32,038 nt of DNA, taken from Candidatus Deferrimicrobium sp. GTDB lineage: Bacteria > Acidobacteriota > Aminicenantia > UBA2199. The position numbers and the translations under genes were made by a program. Position 1 is the first letter of the stretch. The number at the start of each line of letters is the position of its first letter. Under the pieces are notes generated by a model. That model saw only the letters and a program-made list of their open reading frames with translations. It was not told the DNA's origin and did not search any database. The stretch is taken from the NCBI GenBank assembly GCA_035299165.1, contig DATGXF010001204.1, positions 1 to 32,038 of the forward strand. Reading direction: 5' to 3'. This document shows, one piece after another, positions 3,001 to 28,480 of this stretch.

Positions 3001-4353
3001 TTGTTCCAATGGATGTATGAACAGAATTCACTTGCCTATTTCCTGCAAACTTCTTATCAGTTGCGTGGTGAATTCGACATAACGCTGCTGAGAGAAAGTT
3101 TCAATCAACTGCTGCAGAGACATCAAGCATTGCGGGCTTTATTCGTACATCAAGGCGTCGAACGTCCTATCCAGGTAATATTAAAAGATAAGGAAATCGA
3201 TTTTCATTATGAAGATATTCACCACTTAAGTGGGATGATTGAAAAAGAGCAATGGCTCGAAGATTACCGGGAAAAAGACCGGCAGCGTTCCTTTGATCTT
3301 ACCCAGGCCGCGCCGATGCGAGTCAGTGTTATCCAATTAGAACGAAATCAATTCGAAATAATCTGGAGCCACCACCATATCCTGATGGATGGATGGTGCC
3401 GGGGAATACTAATAGCAGAGTATCTTGAGATTTTCGCAAGCCTGTTGGAAAAAAGAACTCCCCGTTTACCCCATGTGACCCCTTATCGGGAATATATTCG
3501 CTGGCTGGATAAACAGTCACCAGAACAAGGACGGCAGTATTGGAGTCGGTATTTGCAAGGCAATGAAGAAACCGCATGCATCCCCAAACGATGTACATTA
3601 AAAGAAGATATCCGGGAATACCGCGTAGAGGCTGTTGCATGGAAATCAGGAAAAGAAAAAGAAGCTGGGTTAATGCAATTGGCCGCACGTAACCAGGTCA
3701 CTGTGAGCACAGTAATGCATACCCTATGGGGCATTTTATTGAGCAAATATAACGATAAACAAGATGTGATATTCGGTTCCGTCGTGTCTGGTCGGCCTTC
3801 GGAAATCCAGGGGGTAGAAGCAATGATAGGGTTATTTATTAATACTGTACCATTTCGATTGCGCTTCCATTGCGGCGATAGGTTTGCTGCATTATTAAAA
3901 CAGATGCAAAAACAAACATTGGAAAGTGAAGCCTATCATTATTTACCGCTGACAGAAATCCAGGCCCAGAGCCTCTTAAAACAAAATTTATTCGATCATA
4001 TCCTGGTCTTTGAAAATTACCCGACAGCGTTGAGAATAGAAGGAATTACAGATAAGATAAAACAAGATCAACGGTTTTTGAAACTGAACCTAATGGGAGT
4101 TAAAATCTTCGAACAAACTCATTATAATTTTATTGTCGTCATTTCAAACGAACCTCTGACAATAAAAATTCAATATAATACGGAATTTTATGACAGTGAA
4201 TCGGTAAACAAAATCCTCGGTCATTTAAATTCTATTATAGACCAGGTGTTGGCAGATGAACAAATCGAAATACAAAATATCGCGGTCCAATATGAACTGT
4301 TGGAGGCCGACGTAACTGCCGGCGAGGATGAATATGAAAATTTCGGCTTTTAA
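1..4353 (+). CDS. NRPS subunit 1, 5'-truncated by the window edge; A(partial)-T-E-C(DCL) plus acidic FGF C-terminal tail
   Basis: Frame 1 is open from nt 1. YLPIDPEFPQERIDYML (A2 core motif) precedes the first ATG at 46. Stop TAA 4351-4353. Motifs: YTSGSTGRPKG (A3), FDASVEQ (A4), NEYGPTETT (A5), YKTGD (A7), GRIDHQVKIRGYRIELGEIE (A8), GGDSI (T), HHLVVDGISW and EGHGRE (E), LSPLQEGMLF and HHHILMDGWC (C). Confidence 0.95.
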   Translation, partial: YLPIDPEFPQERIDYMLKDSGAKLLAVANGQDSEKLGKWEGEKILLEDIFKSPKRYSYFLAHLPSYHLNSSNIAYIIYTSGSTGRPKGVLVEHRSVVNLICHQDKYFNINRSDRILQFSSICFDASVEQMFIAFSSGAILILPDKNTLLDFNKFDKFIIRHRVSHIHAVPSFINNIQLINSSQLKRVISGGDVCPESLAKKWNISFNFYNEYGPTETTVTSIEILIKNANAFLFRIPIGKPINNTVVYILDQWLNPAPLGVIGELYIGGSGVARGYLNCPELTAEKFGKQITQITQMTIMKNYKTGDLARWISGGNIEFMGRIDHQVKIRGYRIELGEIENRLLQKQEITAAVVVVKENKKTEKYLCAYIVSHEEIPPTQLTDHLAAALPTYMIPAYFVRLEKLPLTVQGKIDHKTLEMMPDSESIVGGEYSPPDSDIEHLLVKIWEQVMGHMPIGVNDNFFTSGGDSIKAIQISARMNRKGYKIGVRDIFQNPTIARLAPFIKKIEHIIVQTPVSGAVPLTPIQVEFFQNHKSEPHHYNQAFMFYSKENLDEPIIKAIFFKLQEHHDALRMVYNYEKQEEVSQENLDIGLNPDIWVYDLRKRKDAAAVLMKEANKIQAGINLKTGPLMKIGLFHLDDGERLLIVIHHLVVDGISWRILFEDIDILYRQCKKREPMILPPRTDSFKTWAERLIQYAGTPLFLKEKTYWTTLESQIITSIPKDFAQENNSKKDEEKLSFNLGENETNLLLTRAHEAFGTEINDLLLTALGMAIKQMFGVEKIAVALEGHGREEIFADVDIKRTVGWFTIVYPIILDFSHRFPGQDLGRQIKEIKEHLHHVPNKGIGYGIIKYLSVSGHKKDIHFTLKPQIIFNYLGQFDSNTREMSFRIAAESPGHMTSSFTPREFELDVESIIAEKRLFMTIFYSKKQYRKETIQNLMNHYRETLTHIITYCCSRERSELTPSDFSYSSLTIEQVELLEHKYSPYLIEDIYTLSPLQEGMLFQWMYEQNSLAYFLQTSYQLRGEFDITLLRESFNQLLQRHQALRALFVHQGVERPIQVILKDKEIDFHYEDIHHLSGMIEKEQWLEDYREKDRQRSFDLTQAAPMRVSVIQLERNQFEIIWSHHHILMDGWCRGILIAEYLEIFASLLEKRTPRLPHVTPYREYIRWLDKQSPEQGRQYWSRYLQGNEETACIPKRCTLKEDIREYRVEAVAWKSGKEKEAGLMQLAARNQVTVSTVMHTLWGILLSKYNDKQDVIFGSVVSGRPSEIQGVEAMIGLFINTVPFRLRFHCGDRFAALLKQMQKQTLESEAYHYLPLTEIQAQSLLKQNLFDHILVFENYPTALRIEGITDKIKQDQRFLKLNLMGVKIFEQTHYNFIVVISNEPLTIKIQYNTEFYDSESVNKILGHLNSIIDQVLADEQIEIQNIAVQYELLEADVTAGEDEYENFGF
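100..131 (+). repeat. 8-nt-periodic purine array (A2-A3 region of the NRPS-1 A domain)
   Basis: GAGAAGTT|GGGGAAGT|GGGAAGGT|GAAAAAAT. A degenerate pyrimidine-rich counterpart lies at about 174-212. Confidence 0.75.
868..894 (+). repeat. 9-nt tandem repeat x3 in the A6-A7 loop
   Basis: CAGATAACG CAGATAACG CAGATGACG, read as QIT QIT QMT. Confidence 0.9.
1303..1510 (+). other. Thiolation (PCP) domain, E-partner type
   Basis: DNFFTSGGDSIKAIQISARM. Ser codon at 1402-1404. GGDSI is the variant usually found upstream of epimerization domains. Confidence 0.9.
1540..2870 (+). other. Epimerization domain
   Basis: PLTPIQVEFF, HHLVVDGISWRIL (HH codons 1939-1944), ALEGHGREEIF, FNYLGQF. Confidence 0.9.
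2959..4290 (+). other. Condensation domain, DCL type, at the subunit C-terminus
   Basis: IEDIYTLSPLQEGMLFQ, SHHHILMDGWC (3370-3393), GLFINTVPFR. It follows an E domain. No A domain follows in this protein. Confidence 0.9.
4324..4350 (+). other. Acidic FGF-COOH tail (EDEYENFGF*), candidate docking peptide
   Basis: Codons gag gat gaa tat gaa aat ttc ggc ttt then taa. The same tail type ends NRPS-2 and the radical SAM protein. Confidence 0.7.
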
Positions 4354-23100: not shown

Positions 23101-25985
23101 TGTTGATTGTCGCCAACGACCAGGAAGGTGAGAAGGTGAAAAGCTGGGAAGGGGAGAAAGTGCTTTTAGAAGAAATCTCTAAACTCCCAAAAAGTTCTAC
23201 TTGCTCTCGTACTCTTTTAGCCTCTGACCTTCTGAGCCCTCGAAATATTGCCTATATCATTTACACTTCAGGTTCCACCGGGCGGCCCAAAGGCGTAATG
23301 GTAGAACATCGTAATGTGGTGCGATTGTTTTTTCACGAGGGATGTTTTTTTGAATTTACCGGGCGGGATATATGGACCATGTTTCATTCTCCATGTTTCG
23401 ATTTTTCTGTATGGGAAATGTATGGAGCGTTATTATTCGGCGGCAAGGTGATTGTGGTTTCCAAAATGATGGCCCGGCAACCGGCCAGGTACCTGGAATT
23501 ACTAAAATCAAAGGGGGTGACCGTATTGAACCAGACTCCCAGTGCTTTTTATGCCCTTGAAGCCATGGAATTGCAAAGCAGCGATAAAAAATTGCATTTA
23601 AGGTACGTGATTTTCGGCGGCGAGGTACTGCACCCGATTAAATTGGAGAAGTGGCGGGAAAGATACCCGGAAACGCGGTTAATCAATATGTTCGGCATTA
23701 CGGAAACCACGGTGCATGTTACTTACCGGGAGTTAAGTGCAGGGGACATCCGGCAGGATGTCCGTCATATCGGCCGTCCCATCCCCACCTTGAGCACTTA
23801 TGTGGTTAATAGATATCAACAATTAATGCCTGTCGGAATTGTGGGAGAGTTATGCGTCGGTGGAGGCGGGGTGGCCAGGGGATACCTGAACAGGGTAGAA
23901 TTAACCGCCGAACGTTTTGTTGAAAATTCTTTTGAACCGGGAGGGCGTCTGTACCGGTCCGGTGACCTGGCAAAAATAACCGATGGCAGCGATATGGAAT
24001 ACCTGGGCCGCAGCGATCAACAGGTACAGGTCAGGGGATTCCGCGTGGAACTGGGAGAAATTGAAAACCAACTGCTCCGGCATCCCCTGGTTAAAGAAGC
24101 ATATGTGATGGATCGTGAGGACAGTACCGGTGAGATTTATCTATGCGCTTATATCGCGGTGGACAAAGAAAAGGGGCTGGATACGGCCGAGCTGCGGCAA
24201 CACCTACACTCCAGGCTGCCGGAATACATGGTTCCTTCTTTTTTTGTAAGATTAGAAACGTTACCGGTTACTGCCAACGGTAAAGTGGATCGGCGGACAT
24301 TACCGGCCCCGGCTCCGGGAGAATCAAAGAAAAATTTTACTGCTCCACGGGATGAAATAGAGAAAAAATTAGCTGAAATATGGGCAACCGTATTAGGGCT
24401 GGATAAAAACACAATCGGCATTGACAATGACTTTTTCGAATTGGGCGGACATTCGTTAAAAGCAGGAATATTGGCAGCTTTGATACATAAAGAAATGGAT
24501 GTAAAAATACCTTTGCCGGAAATTTTTATTAATTCCCACATCAGGGACATGGCAGAATATACCCGGATGGCTGCCAAAGAGAAATATCTCTCGATAGAAC
24601 CTGCCAAAAAAAAGGATTATTATGCATTATCTTCGGCACAAAGACGATTATACATTATGCAGCATGTGGATCCTTCGATTACAGCTTATAATATAACCCA
24701 GATGTACGTGATCAAGGGACGGCTGCATATAGAAAAGTTGGTAGCTGCGTTCAGGCAGTTAATTCAACGGCATGAAAGCTTAAGAACTTCATTTATGCTT
24801 TTTGCTGGGGAACCTGTCCAAAAAATCCATGAAAACGTGGAATTCGAAATAAAATGCCATGACGATAATACTGGGGGGCGTACTATCATGGATAATTTTA
24901 TTATGCCCTTTGATTTGCATCATGCGCCGCTATTAAGAGTTGGACTGATAAAAGTGAAAGAGGAAGAGCACATTTTAATGATCGATATGCATCATATCAT
25001 TACTGATGGCGTCTCTACCAATATCCTGGTTCGTGATTTTGCGGCATGCTATGAGAACAACCCCTTACCTGGATTAAAATTGCAGTACAAGGATTTTTCC
25101 GAATGGCAGAACAGCGAGTTTGTAAAAAAAGACATGGCCAGGCAAAAAACGTACTGGGTGAATCGTTTTAGCGGCACGATCCCCCGCCTGAATTTGGACA
25201 CTGACTATGAACGGTCGGAAACTAAATCTTTTGCCGGAGAAAGTATTCATTTTGTCATCGATAAAGAACTATGTCATCAAGTGATAACGTTAACGCAAGA
25301 GACAGAAACATCAATATTTATGTTTTTATTGGCGGTTTACAATGTCTTGCTTTACCATTACAGCAAGCAGGAGGATATCCTGGTAGGAAGTCCCATCATT
25401 GGCAGGCGACATGCGGATTTACAGCATATCGTCGGTATGTTTGTCAATATGCTTGTATACCGAAATTATCCAGCCGGTCAGAAAACGTTTAGGGGCTTTT
25501 TGGAAGAAGTAAAACAAAATGCGCTGCAAGCCTATGAAAACCAGGATTACCAGTTCGAACAATTGATCGTGGATTTGAATTTACAAGGAACCGTGGGCCG
25601 TAATCCACTATTTGATGTTGTATTTTCAATGCAAAGAATAGACCTGGATATGGAAGAAAATGTACATATGAATAAGGCACACGGGGATTCTAAAGGGATC
25701 TCCCCTTTGCAAATTACCCCCTATCCGTTTAAAAGACAAACTACCCCATTTGAATTAATAATGTCAGCCTATGAAACGGATGATGCCATTATGATGAGCC
25801 TGGACTATGCGGCGCGACTTTTTAAACACTCCACGGCAGAAAAAATAATTCGCCATTACCAGGAAGTAATCAATCAAGTGGTGGCAAATATGGACATCGA
25901 ATTGCAAAATATTCGACTCTCACACCAATTCAAACCATTAATGGATGTAAATATTTTAGAGGATCAAGATGATTTTGGATTTTAA
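4377..25985 (+). CDS. NRPS subunit 2, 7,202 aa, six modules: halfC-A-T-C / A-T-C / A-T-C / A-T-E-C / A-T-C / A-T-C, ending in an acidic FGF tail
   Basis: Uninterrupted ORF with six sets of A core motifs, six GG(H/D)S(L/I) carrier motifs, six HHxxxDG condensation motifs and one E domain (EGHGRE). Stop TAA 25983-25985. Confidence 0.97.
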   Translation: MDKDISRETKIISSQRIKEKTYWLEQLSGSPEKTGFPYDQRSPGTKEYIAETLEFSFSSNQAAALLKLCNNSDIRLFIILAAGLTLLLKKYTGSSDIILAAPIYKQQIKGDYINTILLLKNSVPPRITFKELLIHTARVIKEADENKNYPIEILMEQLNIPFYENECSLFDTALLLENIHDRQYLSPIKPAVIFSFARVGTDVGGIIAYNSRLYKQTTIENIAAHMKNLFQQFLNHPDITENDIDILSEVEKRQLLIVFNDTAAQYPDKGISDLFAGQVEKTPHYTALIYENASLTYRALDSRANLMAAYFKSKGITVDNIVAVLLERSLEMITSILAILKSAGAYMPIDPEYPRERIDYMLKDSGAKLLVTVGNQEIEKLRRWEGEKNFEIVFFNSFFYSSLSTSDLPNFLTSHTFNLAYVIYTSGTTGKPKGSLITHKNVVRLLFNDRSRFDFNHRDIWAMFHSYCFDFSVWEMYGALFYGGKLVVVPRIVTRDPAQYLELLKNRGVTILNQTPTAFYNLIEEELKHLDHSLNLKYIIFGGEALNPFRLAKWHKKYPTTKLINMFGITETTVHVTYKEISDREIGLGVSNIGSPIPTLSTYIMDSYLSLMPIGAVGELCVAGDGIARGYLNRPEMTAEKFIENPYKSGEKMYRSGDLARLLNNGEMEYIGRLDQQIKIRGFRVELGEIQNRLLQHDSVKEAIVTIREDEDGEKSLYAYIVFHQPFEISKLRAFLAITLPDYMIPGYFIPLERIPLTANGKVDIKALPHAVARGSVYLSPRNTIEETLAAIWVHELNLERVGIDENYFNIGGDSIKAIRLLNTVNQSFNTDLKIVDIFTHETIEKLAQRITREKPGQSTDSQSQEVKKEIEVLKTRAMEKLPLLLAEDIEDIYPMSDIEKGMIYYTLKDPGDGAYHDQIVYQVPYRDFNPLTFTRALQLMTEKHPILRTSFQMENYEEPLQLVHKSVCIDMEHQDISSMDPALQEDFLINYLIADRKKGFVVSEAPLWRIRTFQIDSKQICILLVTHHAILDGWSVAAFSTELNNIYRHLKNNPHLTLHKLHSTYKDFIIDQLVEMRTNRVQDYWKDQLDGYQRMDFIKKNRGDTFTSARMYSFEPEQGLAVKLENCAWQYGSTVKHLCLAAYIYMLNMFSYENDITAGIVVMGRPVCEDGDKILGCFLNTIPFRLKIPDHFTWADYIREVERKQTEQANYSRTSLFEISRIIGETPQSNNPIFDTIYNFIDFHIYESVEYDEKTDAGAVNRNRQRLSISGYVKTNTLLDFHVDFTLGRFVVTINYTNSTFTGDEIKTLAYYFEQVLKTIITRPIEVISKDEIISPGEREKLLYKFNQTEADYPNSTTLQELFHKQVERTPYRVSLLGGENNTRRKQQITYNVLNEISGRLAHVLRTKGVKEDRVVGIMVERSIEFITGVFGILKAGGAYLPMDPVHPAARNRYMLQDSRAELLLTTKKTAAKIAFDRQMIYIDDLNITPGFFPDPVESSATGAGSIAYIIYTSGSTGKPKGVLIEHKAIVNRLHWMQQRYPIDGGDTLLQKTPFTFDVSVWEIFWWSLVGGRLCMLVPGGEKDPGVIIEVVQKNRVTVIHFVPSMLAVLLDFLSESGDAYKLSCLKQVITSGEALTLAHVSHFNAVLGQRYNIKLANFYGPTEATVDVTFFDCPLGEAMDIVPIGKPIDNIFLYILDKHGQLQPPGASGELCITGTGLARGYINNPGLTNEKFKTVQQWNGLNKNFSGGPGGRFFKKAPLALYKTGDLARWLPDGNIEFLGRIDRQIKIRGNRIELGEIENRLLEYPQVKEAAVEANLCAYFVPQVGADISISQLREYLQQHLPGYMVPLHYVRLEAMPLTPSGKIDRKSLPAPEIITDQSYLDPQDEIEKKLTGIWAEVLNITKPISSIANFFESGGHSLNAVALISRIHKAFDVKITLESLFKNPTIQKIAAHLKAAQPDKFLVIPAVEKKEFYPLSSAQERLYFLQQMIGAETVYNIPLVMLLHGPIDRAALERAFNRLIQRHESFRTSFHVVSGEIVQKVHDNVKFEIEILADKGQQEELNALVRPFELSKAPLLRVGLIKKTTEEYILALDMHHIIVDGVSFTVLVRDFMQLYEKNELPPMRVQYKDFVQWMRMDLQEEMIRRQETYWVKEFAGDVPVLSLPTDYLRPAIQNFEGSSLGFVIDAEIAGLLEKYALEQETTVYTVLLSLYYILLAKLASQEDIVIGIPVAGRNHADLENIIGMFVNTLALRNYPNGNKSVKRFLAEVKENLLAGLGNQDYPIEDLIEKVYTSRDTSRNPLFSTVFVMQNVDMANRPKVENPGLRISPYNYENKTAKFDLTLRIVETGKRIACEFEYCTRLFVQSTVKHFVDYFINAANALRQGIDISIADLDILPETEKQRLLYDFNETAAEYPRDKTIHGLFTEQVEQTPDLIAVVGSTVETPLQITYRQLNEQSNRLAYVLQTRGIELDTIVGIMMERSIEMVAGMIGILKSGSAYLPIDPEYPGERIKYMLKDSGVKLLVMTNHKESEKIGQWEGEKNLEIVFFDSLSFSSSLLTSYLPNFPTSHSFNLAYVIYTSGTTGQPKGSLIEHRNVVRLLFNDKFQFDFTDYDVWTLFHSLCFDFSVWEMYGALLYGGKLVIVPKMVAMDTIGFLELLNREAVTVLNQTPSAFYNLINEALSPYREGKKLYIKYVIFGGEALNTLKLRDWLAKYPQTSLINMFGITETTVHVTYKELNQKDVELSISNVGKPIPTLKVYILDKYLKQVPVGGEGEIYVGGDGVARGYLNRPELTSNKFINIHHSSFDIPRIHDPKLYRTGDLARYLSNGDMEYLGRIDQQVKIRGFRIELGEIENRLTKIAGIKEAVVIDREDEPGDKYLCAYIVSKKAVIVTEIREYLTGNLPDYMIPSHFLQIDKIPITANGKIDRKALPKPGLKLSDSYIAPQSALEKQLARLWADVLGIEDNIGSDDNFFELGGHSLRATVLIARMHKEFHVKVPLVEIFRIPRLKELAVYIKGKKKEIYNAIEPCEAKEYYALSPAQKRLYILQQLVPGNTGYNMPNVIPLAGYVEKEKLESVFKELIKRHESLRTCFIKVNDEPVQRINKEVEFSIACMKSQAPGRPDFVGTFDLSQAPLLRVKLLTVDATSQMLLIDMHHIITDGVSQGILEKEFMMLYAGETLPTLRLQYKDYSEWQNSRQQKLLIKEQETYWLELFAGDIPVLNLAIDYPRPIMQSFEGANVRFVLTANESRVLKEAAVQTGATLYMSILSVFTILLSRLSGQEDIIVGAAIAARRHADLEKIIGMFVNTLAMRNNPVREKSYREFLLDLKEQTLKAYENQEYPFEELVDNITVSRDTGRNPVFDAMFNLLNIQDYNDRIINTGTEEYQSTHQEGNAKFDLTLIGVDLGERFLFDIEYCTRLFKPETIDRFISYFKKLLDSISQDIDKKLCALDIITEEERNRVLYEWNDTRVDYPKDKTIHQLFEEQVDVTPDHIAVIGSWEREKENSGVENLSVASLHITYLQLNEQSNRLAYGLQTKRVGPDTIVAIMAERSVEMIIEILGILKAGGAYLPIDPEYPQERIDYMLKDSGAKLMKRRHARACAEEFLASSLPRFLASASSNLAYIIYTSGSTGKPKGVMVEHHSVINLIQTRAYRFKTGTPGRLLLATSICFDASVEQIFAALFFGNVCVVAAKETLLGKELLNGFLKQHAVTYLTVVPSILALISEDNNTLKGITVGGEPCPVSLARQWSKRCIFYNEYGPTETTVTVLEKKIIADEENTWCLPLGKPIPNIRIFILDAALKIVPMMVNGELFIEGAGVTRGYLNNPELTRGSFTNILRKCAEKTSIWDIVFKEERPQGRAKELGAPPHFEKTPTGMDPVKRLFNYHSPLTARHSPFVTHQSPIYKTGDLARWLPDGNIEFLGRIDQQVKIRGFRIELGEIENCLAKIVGIKEAVVIDREDETGDKYLCAYIVFTKEYEITELHRYLAKELPAHMVPAYFVPVEKIPQTTNGKIDRKSLPEPKTMSLKENIAHTVPTTAVEKKLVKIWQRVLGRDNIGIDENFFMIGGDSIKSIQIISRMNSEGYRLEMKDIFQHPVISELAPLVKKLERVPDQNAITGTILLTPIQQVFFSKDYTVPHHFNQSVMFYSRERFDADALKEVFAKIQEHHDALRMTYRFDVDDEDKENKKIIQTNHSLDYPLCFDEYDLKNQPNSLEELNIKVNQIQAGIDLEKGPLMKLGLFHLDSGDRLLVVIHHLVIDGISWRILFQDIETLYNQYRQGKTFALPHKTDSFKLWSEKLYLYANGQPFLKEKDYWGQLEANIVPGIPQDFEEKENNADDTANIRSLSFRLEEEETNLLLTRVNHAFGTEINDILLTALGLGMKKTFGQDKVLLALEGHGREEILAETGIDISRTVGWFTSIYPVSMDMSYSGDLGRQIKEIKEKLRRIPNKGVGYGILKYLTDEKNKKEIEFKLKPQISFNYLGQFDADVKQMSSFEMAKESPGNPISTKNKREYEFDINGMISYNRLVIGVSYNHTHFKAETMASLTGNLQSELRRIISYCSVQEKREFTPSDFTYKSLSIDYLNRLMQLYTDVEDIYPLTPMQEGMLFHALVDEKSHSYFEQMSYRLEGKLDIHLTEKSLNELFKRHEILRTAFIYEEVERPLQVVLSKRAIDFYYEDIRSIDDKKEKEFFVAEFKEKDKRRSFVLSKSALMRVSILQLADSEYEFIWSFHHILMDGWCIGILNSEFFEIYSSYLGNRPYRLPDLKPYRTYIQWLEKQNKEASLSYWENYLDSYEEQVSMPRTNIIKNEPGKLGEINRRVSFLLDRDKTVGLNKLAAVNNVTLNVVTQVLWGIILGKYNGKEDVVFGAVVSGRTSELDGIESMVGLFINTIPVRIQFNEHMNFNYLLQKIQQEALTGEPYHYNPLAEIQSISSLKQNLLDHIFIFENYPIAERIEGYGKEENKSGKSLSVRLLDVEIFEQTNYDFNVLLGGSDQLSIIFQYNANVYERSFVERIGQHFSLAVDQVIKNGGLEIKKLNLLTEEEKSLLLYRFNNTAVEYPKDKSIHLLFQEQAEQIPDSIALIGPLLSIEENGLTSLNTNAANMLIQQSYNELNKQSIRLAHMLQTKGVGPDTIVAIMMERSVEMIIGILGILAAGGAYLPIDPEYPQARIDYMLKDSGAKLMIGRGEERKSRRAERNFIYISFSSNHASSNLDSSLPRFHNSDSSNSAYVIYTSGSTGKPKGVMVGHRNIMNFNQGIISNIPFSPGKAILALTTISFDIFVLETFLPLLNGLKVVIANEEQQKDPSLLGETIVKHCLDMLQVTPSTLHMLISHNGELHCLQGLKELMVGGEAFPDHLFTRVKEAFKGNIYNMYGPTETTVWSALKNLTLEETVNIGTPIANTQIFIVDRCNRLLPIGASGELCIGGDGVARGYLNRPELTSEKFCRHLWVERPRRGLQHSKLYRTGDLARCLLDGNIQFLGRIDQQVKVRGFRIELGEIESRLLECEGIKEAVVVIKEGDGADKYICAYIVSHPGNVLSDMKLREELAAKLPYYMIPSYIIQLERIPLTPNGKIDRNALPAPAMGEGEAGTAPRNDMEKKLAGIWSEVLGMAKEKPGIDHNFFQIGGHSLKAVIMISRIHKVFNVIISLVDFFQRPTIRQLSEYIKKAESDRFFSIEPAEKKEYYPLSSSQKRLLFLQQLEEFNVAYNMTAVLEWHGVLNREGVESTFQRLIARHESFRTSFHTHNGQAVQQIHPQVKFEIEYNHEADIDTGTKNFIKPFDLGQAPLLKVRLSEISPGRHLLMVDMHHIISDGVSVQLAMRDFMRLYGGEDLPPLGFQYKDYSQWQNEPQQKEILKKQRGYWSEEFAGDVPVLSLPLDYPRPLLQSFDGETVHFELNTEETRGLRATAKKIQGTLYMVLLALYTVFLAKMTGQEDIVVGTPVAGRRHKDLEEIIGNFVNTLALRNRLEGGMTFKDLLDKVKVNLLQAFENQEHPYEDLIEEVGVKRDTSRNPLFDAALALHNVDMPGEISWASSGNIKIKPVSIPGKTSKFDLTLQVIEGQEKIDLEFEYCNKLFMPSTIRRFVEYFKGILKEVLPEPAIRLREISIISPQEKQQLLAAFNHTQSQYPEYQTIDRLFGEQAVRTPDAISVAYNDNTITYRELECRAGQVTDYLGNKCGLKAGELAAILANRSENTIIGMLGILKAGGAYLPIDPDYPQERIDYILQDSGAKLLIVANDQEGEKVKSWEGEKVLLEEISKLPKSSTCSRTLLASDLLSPRNIAYIIYTSGSTGRPKGVMVEHRNVVRLFFHEGCFFEFTGRDIWTMFHSPCFDFSVWEMYGALLFGGKVIVVSKMMARQPARYLELLKSKGVTVLNQTPSAFYALEAMELQSSDKKLHLRYVIFGGEVLHPIKLEKWRERYPETRLINMFGITETTVHVTYRELSAGDIRQDVRHIGRPIPTLSTYVVNRYQQLMPVGIVGELCVGGGGVARGYLNRVELTAERFVENSFEPGGRLYRSGDLAKITDGSDMEYLGRSDQQVQVRGFRVELGEIENQLLRHPLVKEAYVMDREDSTGEIYLCAYIAVDKEKGLDTAELRQHLHSRLPEYMVPSFFVRLETLPVTANGKVDRRTLPAPAPGESKKNFTAPRDEIEKKLAEIWATVLGLDKNTIGIDNDFFELGGHSLKAGILAALIHKEMDVKIPLPEIFINSHIRDMAEYTRMAAKEKYLSIEPAKKKDYYALSSAQRRLYIMQHVDPSITAYNITQMYVIKGRLHIEKLVAAFRQLIQRHESLRTSFMLFAGEPVQKIHENVEFEIKCHDDNTGGRTIMDNFIMPFDLHHAPLLRVGLIKVKEEEHILMIDMHHIITDGVSTNILVRDFAACYENNPLPGLKLQYKDFSEWQNSEFVKKDMARQKTYWVNRFSGTIPRLNLDTDYERSETKSFAGESIHFVIDKELCHQVITLTQETETSIFMFLLAVYNVLLYHYSKQEDILVGSPIIGRRHADLQHIVGMFVNMLVYRNYPAGQKTFRGFLEEVKQNALQAYENQDYQFEQLIVDLNLQGTVGRNPLFDVVFSMQRIDLDMEENVHMNKAHGDSKGISPLQITPYPFKRQTTPFELIMSAYETDDAIMMSLDYAARLFKHSTAEKIIRHYQEVINQVVANMDIELQNIRLSHQFKPLMDVNILEDQDDFGF
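5511..5542 (+). repeat. 8-nt-periodic purine array, module 1
   Basis: GAGAAGCT|GAGAAGGT|GGGAAGGT|GAGAAAAA, read as EKLRRWEGEK. Confidence 0.85.
5598..5621 (+). repeat. 8-nt tandem pyrimidine array, inverted counterpart of 5511-5542
   Basis: CTTCCTAA|CTTCCTAA|CTTCCCAT. The reverse complement contains GGGAAGTT and AGGAAGTT. Read as LPNFLTSH. Confidence 0.85.
6715..6930 (+). other. T domain, module 1 (GGDSI variant although no E domain follows)
   Basis: ENYFNIGGDSIKAIRLL. Ser codon 6819-6821. Confidence 0.9.
7041..8350 (+). other. Condensation-family domain, atypical subtype
   Basis: IEDIYPMSDIEKGMIYY (in place of LSxAQxRLY or LTPMQEGMLF), THHAILDGWS (HH 7458-7463), GCFLNTIPFR. It has no Cy DxxxxD motif, no second N-terminal HH motif and no EGHGRE. 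Confidence 0.8.
8440..9995 (+). other. A domain, module 2, predicted Ser-like
   Basis: YTSGSTGKPKG, FTFDVSVWEIFW, HFVPSML, ITSGEAL, NFYGPTEATVDV, YKTGD, KIRGNRIELGEIE, PSGKIDRKSL. Code DVWHISFVDK against Ser DVWHLSLIDK. It lacks the octamer arrays seen in other modules. Confidence 0.8.
9630..9663. repeat. GC-rich palindrome (10-bp perfect stem) inside the coding sequence, A6-A7 loop of module 2
   Basis: CCAGGGGGGC-GGTTTTTTAAAAAA-GCCCCCCTGG. The loop T6/A6 is itself self-complementary. Read in frame as GPGGRFFKKAPLA. Confidence 0.9.
10030..10250 (+). other. T domain, module 2
   Basis: NFFESGGHSLNAVAL. Ser codon 10140-10142. Confidence 0.9.
10300..11570 (+). other. Condensation domain, LCL type
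   Basis: FYPLSSAQERLYFLQ, RHESFRTSF, MHHIIVDGVS (HH 10674-10679), GMFVNTLALR. Confidence 0.9.
11985..12016 (+). repeat. 8-nt-periodic purine array, module 3
   Basis: GAGAAAAT|CGGGCAGT|GGGAAGGT|GAGAAAAA. Confidence 0.8.
12075..12098 (+). repeat. 8-nt tandem pyrimidine array, module 3
   Basis: CTTCCTAA|CTTCCCAA|CTTCCCAT, read as LPNFPTSH. Confidence 0.85.
12792..12819 (+). repeat. 7-nt tandem array in the A6-A7 loop of module 3
   Basis: ATTCATC|ATTCATC|ATTCGAT|ATTCCAC. Confidence 0.85.
12901..13045 (+). repeat. Dispersed direct repeat copy A (A8 to post-A8 region of module 3)
   Basis: 145 nt aligned by hand to 16171-16315 with 12 mismatches and no gaps (about 92 percent identity). Confidence 0.9.
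13220..13440 (+). other. T domain, module 3
   Basis: DNFFELGGHSLRATVL. Ser codon 13329-13331. Confidence 0.9.
13490..14750 (+). other. Condensation domain, LCL type
   Basis: YYALSPAQKRLYILQ, RHESLRTCF, MHHIITDGVS (HH 13857-13862), GMFVNTLAMR. Confidence 0.9.
15186..15203. repeat. Alternating pyrimidine-purine tract (YR)9, contains the 10-bp palindrome CACGCGCGTG
   Basis: CACGCGCGTGCGTGCGCG, a GC island in AT-rich coding sequence. Read as HARACA. Confidence 0.9.
15211..15242 (+). repeat. 8-nt tandem array x4, module 4
   Basis: TCCTCGCT|TCCTCGCT|TCCTCGCT|TTCTCGCT, read as the SSLPRFLAS portion of FLASSLPRFLASASS. Confidence 0.9.
16055..16103 (+). repeat. 7-nt-periodic array at the end of the module 4 insertion
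   Basis: CCACTCA|CCTCTCA|CTGCGCG|CCACTCA|CCGTTCG|TCACTCA|CCAATCA, read as HSPLTARHSPFVTHQS. Confidence 0.8.
16171..16315 (+). repeat. Dispersed direct repeat copy B (A8 to post-A8 region of module 4)
   Basis: See 12901-13045. Confidence 0.9.
16500..16720 (+). other. T domain, module 4, E-partner type
   Basis: ENFFMIGGDSIKSIQI. Ser codon 16605-16607. Confidence 0.9.
16745..18090 (+). other. Epimerization domain
   Basis: LLTPIQQVFF, IHHLVIDGISWRIL (HH 17160-17165), ALEGHGREEIL, FNYLGQF. Confidence 0.9.
18180..19500 (+). other. Condensation domain, DCL type
   Basis: VEDIYPLTPMQEGMLFH, SFHHILMDGWC (HH 18597-18602), GLFINTIPVR. It follows an E domain. Confidence 0.9.
19956..19995 (+). repeat. 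8-nt-periodic purine array, module 5
   Basis: GGAAGGGG|AGAAGAAC|GGAAGAGC|AGAAGAGC|GGAAAGAA. Confidence 0.8.
20046..20077 (+). repeat. 8-nt-periodic pyrimidine array, module 5
   Basis: TCCTCGCT|TCCTCGCT|TCCATAAT|TCCGATTC. It shares the TCCTCGCT unit with module 4. Confidence 0.8.
20761..20775. repeat. GC-rich hairpin in the A6-A7 loop of module 5
   Basis: GCCCCC-GCC-GGGGGC, read as RPRRG. Confidence 0.8.
21185..21400 (+). other. T domain, module 5
   Basis: HNFFQIGGHSLKAVIM. Ser codon 21291-21293. Confidence 0.9.
21455..22720 (+). other. Condensation domain, LCL type
   Basis: YYPLSSSQKRLLFLQ, RHESFRTSF, MHHIISDGVS (HH 21825-21830), GNFVNTLALR. Confidence 0.9.
22790..24310 (+). other. A domain, module 6, predicted Thr
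   Basis: YTSGSTGRPKG, CFDFSVWEMYGAL, NQTPSAF, IFGGEVL, NMFGITETTVHVTY, YRSGD, QVRGFRVELGEIE, ANGKVDRRTL. Code DFWNIGMVHK (Thr). Confidence 0.85.
23122..23161 (+). repeat. 8-nt-periodic purine array, module 6
   Basis: AGGAAGGT|GAGAAGGT|GAAAAGCT|GGGAAGGG|GAGAAAGT. A degenerate pyrimidine-rich counterpart lies at about 23195-23245. Confidence 0.8.
24345..24560 (+). other. T domain, module 6
   Basis: NDFFELGGHSLKAGIL. Ser codon 24453-24455. Confidence 0.9.
24615..25930 (+). other. Condensation domain, LCL type, at the subunit C-terminus
   Basis: YYALSSAQRRLYIMQ, RHESLRTSF, MHHIITDGVS (HH 24990-24995), GMFVNMLVYR. No A domain follows in this protein. Confidence 0.9.
25956..25982 (+). other. Acidic FGF-COOH tail (LEDQDDFGF*), candidate docking peptide
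   Basis: Codons tta gag gat caa gat gat ttt gga ttt then taa. It replaces the usual C-A linker after the terminal C domain. Confidence 0.7.
25959..25963 (+). promoter_or_regulatory. Shine-Dalgarno-like site for the radical SAM gene, embedded in the tail codons of NRPS-2
   Basis: GAGGA lies 5 nt upstream of ATG 25969. The start codon sits inside the gat gat of the DDFGF tail, giving a 17-nt overlap. Confidence 0.6.
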
Positions 25986-27705
25986 AGAAAAGATTAAATG
26001 CAAAAATACGCCTATAACTCCGATTCCCAATAAAATCCTGCTGCTCATGTTACCCTATTGGGACCCGCTCATTCCGCCGCAGGGAATTTCCCACCTTAAA
26101 TTTTTTTTACAGCAACACGGTTACATCGTGAAAACGGATGACCTTAATATCAAAAAAGAATTTAAATTAATATATGACCGCTATTTCGGTCTTTATAAAA
26201 ATTATATTCCCCAGGATATGCAAGGAAATTTTTTCAATATTGGGCATGATGTCATGCGAAACCATATGCTGGCCCATGTTAATTACACCCATGAAGCCGA
26301 ATATATGAAATTGGTAAAGGAAATCGTCTATAACACATTTTATATTATGCTCAGCGATGAGCAGGTAACCACGCTCAACAATGTAATGGTTGAATTTTAC
26401 CAGGCTTTAGAAGACTATTTACAATATTTACTAATAAGCGAAAGACCGTCTGTATTGGGTGTAACTGTACTCCGGGATACCATTGGACCGGCTTTGTTTG
26501 TTTTCAAACAAACGAGGAGAAAATATCCCTTTATAAAAACGGTTATGGGGGGAAGCATATTTTCAGATCACCTGTTAATGGGGACGCCCAACTATGAATA
26601 TTTTTTAGAGAAGACACCGTTTATAGATAAGATTATCATCGGGGAAGGGCAGAAATTGTTTTTAAAATTATTGAAAGGAGAAATCCCAGCTTCCAAACGG
26701 GTTATTACGATGAAGGATATTGAAGGGCAGGCCCTGGGATTTTCGCCCTTAAATTTCCCTGACATGTCGGACTTTAATGTTGCCGAGGATTATCCCTATA
26801 TTGCGGCCCAGGCTTCCGCCAGTTGCCCTAATCAATGCAGTTTTTGCAACGTGGCAGCCTATTTTGGAAAATATAGGGAAAAAGAAGCTTCAACCACGTT
26901 TGCTGAAATGAAAGCTTTGTATGAAAAATACGGCATGCAAATATTTTTTATGAATGATTCCTTATTAAATATGGTAGCTACCGGTTTGGCAGATGAGATA
27001 ATAAATTCTCATTTGACTTTGTATTGGGACGGGTATTTAAGAGTAGATCCGGCGGTTAGCGAGCCGGGGGTTGCGCTTCACTGGCGGCGCGGTGGATTTT
27101 ATCGGGCCCGCCTGGGAATCGAGAGTGGCTCCCAACGGGTATTGGACTTGATACATAAAGGAATCACCGTTACCCAAATAAAGGAAACTCTCATTAGTCT
27201 TGCCACTGCCGGGATAAAAACCACTGCCTACTGGGTAATCGGCCACCCGGGCGAAACTGAAGAAGATTTCTTACAAACCCTAAAACTCCTGGAAGAGATA
27301 AAGGACTATATTTATGAGGCGGAATGCAATTCGTTTATTTTCGGTTTTGGCGGCCAGGCAGATTCCGAAACCTGGAAAGAGCAACGGAAACCTCTTTACT
27401 CTGAAAGTGCCGGGGAAATGCTGCTCATCCAATCATGGGTCTGCGACACAGAACCCTCCAGGGAAGAAACTTATCGCCGGATGAACCGGTTCGTGCAATT
27501 GTGCCATCGGTTGGGTATTCCTAACCCTTATTCGATTATGGAAATTCATAATGCCGATTTGCGTTGGCAAAAATTGCATAAAAATGCGGTTCCCTGCCTG
27601 GCGGATTTCAAAGGACCCAATGCCTATATAGACGAATGTAAAACTGTAAAGCAATTGATGTTACTTCAAGATAAGATCGAGGAGGAAGGTGATTTCGGTT
27701 TTTAA
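25969..27705 (+). CDS. B12-binding-domain (class B-like) radical SAM enzyme, 578 aa, ending in an acidic FGF tail
   Basis: The N-terminal Rossmann-like segment KILLLMLPYWDPLIPPQGISHLKFFLQQHGYIVKTDD and VLGVTVL...KTVMGGSIFS is typical of cobalamin-binding radical SAM proteins. It has a canonical CxxxCxxC (CPNQCSFC) and GIESGSQRVLDLIHKG. Reaction and substrate cannot be read from the sequence. Confidence 0.88.
   Translation: MILDFKEKIKCKNTPITPIPNKILLLMLPYWDPLIPPQGISHLKFFLQQHGYIVKTDDLNIKKEFKLIYDRYFGLYKNYIPQDMQGNFFNIGHDVMRNHMLAHVNYTHEAEYMKLVKEIVYNTFYIMLSDEQVTTLNNVMVEFYQALEDYLQYLLISERPSVLGVTVLRDTIGPALFVFKQTRRKYPFIKTVMGGSIFSDHLLMGTPNYEYFLEKTPFIDKIIIGEGQKLFLKLLKGEIPASKRVITMKDIEGQALGFSPLNFPDMSDFNVAEDYPYIAAQASASCPNQCSFCNVAAYFGKYREKEASTTFAEMKALYEKYGMQIFFMNDSLLNMVATGLADEIINSHLTLYWDGYLRVDPAVSEPGVALHWRRGGFYRARLGIESGSQRVLDLIHKGITVTQIKETLISLATAGIKTTAYWVIGHPGETEEDFLQTLKLLEEIKDYIYEAECNSFIFGFGGQADSETWKEQRKPLYSESAGEMLLIQSWVCDTEPSREETYRRMNRFVQLCHRLGIPNPYSIMEIHNADLRWQKLHKNAVPCLADFKGPNAYIDECKTVKQLMLLQDKIEEEGDFGF
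26032..26720 (+). other. Putative cobalamin-binding N-terminal domain of the radical SAM protein
   Basis: Pattern of a beta-strand (ILLLMLP), PPxG-hLxxxLxxxG-h-V-x-x-D, and a later VMGG motif. It carries a ~100-aa helical insertion between them. The assignment rests on motif resemblance only. Confidence 0.65.
26824..26847 (+). other. Radical SAM [4Fe-4S] cluster motif CxxxCxxC
   Basis: tgc cct aat caa tgc agt ttt tgc = C-PNQ-C-SF-C (Cys286/290/293 of the ORF). Confidence 0.9.
27676..27702 (+). other. Acidic FGF-COOH tail (IEEEGDFGF*) on the radical SAM protein
   Basis: Codons atc gag gag gaa ggt gat ttc ggt ttt then taa. The tail type matches 4324-4350 and 25956-25982. Confidence 0.7.
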
Positions 27706-27733: not shown

Positions 27734-28480
27734 ATGAGAGGCATTAACAAATCGATAGATCTGGCTGATATTCTAAATCGGCATATAAAAGAGCAGAATT
27801 ACTGGTTGAATCAATTATCCGGCGATTGGGAAAAATGCAGCTTTCCGGCTTATGATACGAAAAAGGTATCCCGGCAAAAAGAAATGCAGTCGCTCAGTTT
27901 CCAGGTGGACAGTGAGCTTTTTGAAAAAATCATGAAGTTGCGCAATGGTTCCGATATCCGGTTATTCATAATATTGGCGGCGGGATTGGCGACACTTTTG
28001 TTTAAATATACCGATAACTGTGATATTGTGCTGGGGAGCCCGGTGTTAAAACAAGACCAGGGAATGGACGTTGAATTTATCAATACGGTTTTGACTTTAA
28101 GAAATCGTATTACCGGTACAATGTCCTTTAAAGAGCTCCTTTTGCAGGTAAAACAAACGGTCGCGGAAGCGACACAGCATCAAAATTACCCGGTAGAACA
28201 TTTGCCTGAACTATTAAATATACCCTTTCTTGAAGGTGAGGACTTCCCATTGTTCGATGCAGCGGTTTTGCTTGAAAATATTCATGATAAAGCATATACC
28301 CGCCCCATTCCATTGAACATGATTTTTTCTTTCAATAGGAACCCCCAGGATATTACGGGTATTATCGAATATAACCTTAACATTTATGATAGATGGACAA
28401 TCGAAAGAATTAGAGACCATTTCATCCGGATGTTCCAGGTCATTCTCTCAAACATCGATCATCCTATTTCTAATATTGAT
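27734..28480 (+). other. N-terminal half condensation domain (C-terminal lobe only, no HHxxxDG)
   Basis: It is a homologue of 4377-5106: KEQNYWLNQLSG, IRLFIILAAGLATLLFKYTDNCDIVLGSPV, FINTVLTLRN, HQNYPVEHLPELL, LFDAAVLLENIHD. The linker ILSEEEKNCLLMDFNNS follows. Confidence 0.8.

Follow-up and report, generated by a model that had tools for sequence, protein, structure and literature searches.

The acidic tail carried by two NRPS subunits and a B12-type radical SAM (rSAM) protein follows a widespread rule and is not a coincidence. From sequence alone and without binding data, it is suggested that this tail plugs into the catalytically dead half-C domain opening the next synthetase subunit.

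The window, a stretch of 32,038 nucleotides, contains four consecutive genes. NRPS-1 (frame 1) extends beyond the window start and ends at 4353, NRPS-2 (7202 aa) spans 4377-25985, the rSAM gene (578 aa) spans 25969-27705, and NRPS-3 starts at 27734 with its 3' part beyond the window end. The first 17 nt of the rSAM gene lie within the end of NRPS-2, and gaps of 23 nt (NRPS-1/NRPS-2) and 28 nt (rSAM/NRPS-3) separate the others. The translated C termini read ENFGF, DDFGF, and GDFGF, within AGEDEYENFGF for NRPS-1 (4324-4350, stop codon at 4351-4353), NILEDQDDFGF for NRPS-2 (25956-25982), and KIEEEGDFGF for the rSAM (27676-27702). Retranslation reproduced the common tail, all of its coordinates, and both gap lengths as given in a preliminary description of this DNA.

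Motifs and Pfam assign the order ..A-T-E-C-tail to NRPS-1, halfC-A-T-C-A-T-C-A-T-C-A-T-E-C-A-T-C-A-T-C-tail to NRPS-2, and halfC-A-T-C-A... to NRPS-3. For the N-terminal half-C domains of NRPS-2 and NRPS-3, alignment to full C domains is confined to residues ~188-458 of the latter, with 22-28% identity. Both are missing HHxxxD.

The comparison covered about 150 related gene clusters, with 78 loci from genomes and 80 from metagenomes. In these loci, the usual order is a C-ending subunit with an acidic-FxF tail, an rSAM with the same tail, and a half-C-A-T... subunit. The half-C at the subunit start measures 250 aa and consists of the C-lobe only. Defined as [FW]x[FLI]-COOH, the tail is found on 70/96 C-ending subunits and 69/87 rSAMs, as opposed to 1/36 T-ending subunits, 0/4 E-ending subunits, and only 10/243 other flanking ORFs, several of which are tailoring enzymes occupying the same position. 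These counts exclude a chance likeness of the tails. At a given junction, the rSAM tail matches that of the upstream NRPS, also when shuffled inside one genome.

Tail position -5 covaries with half-C residue 76, -3 with 79/140, and -2 with 71, a signal far exceeding that of A-domain control columns. The pairings (D/E with Lys, Trp with Gly/Ser, and Gly with Arg) are chemically sensible, and the covarying patch coincides with the half-C-specific motif S-N/K-G-S-D-x-R.

The best reading is that the tail would be a docking motif and the half-C its socket, binding being inferred. C-methylation of the Tyr-like residue on module 1 of NRPS-3 is the probable, inferred role of the rSAM. No earlier description of such a tail/half-C docking system was found. 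The tail also occurs on U32-family proteins and other B12-rSAMs, and natural fusions exist as rSAM-halfC-A-T and rSAM-C-tail. In this reading the half-C socket would, again by inferred binding, serve both the C domain upstream and tailoring enzymes that need no oxygen.

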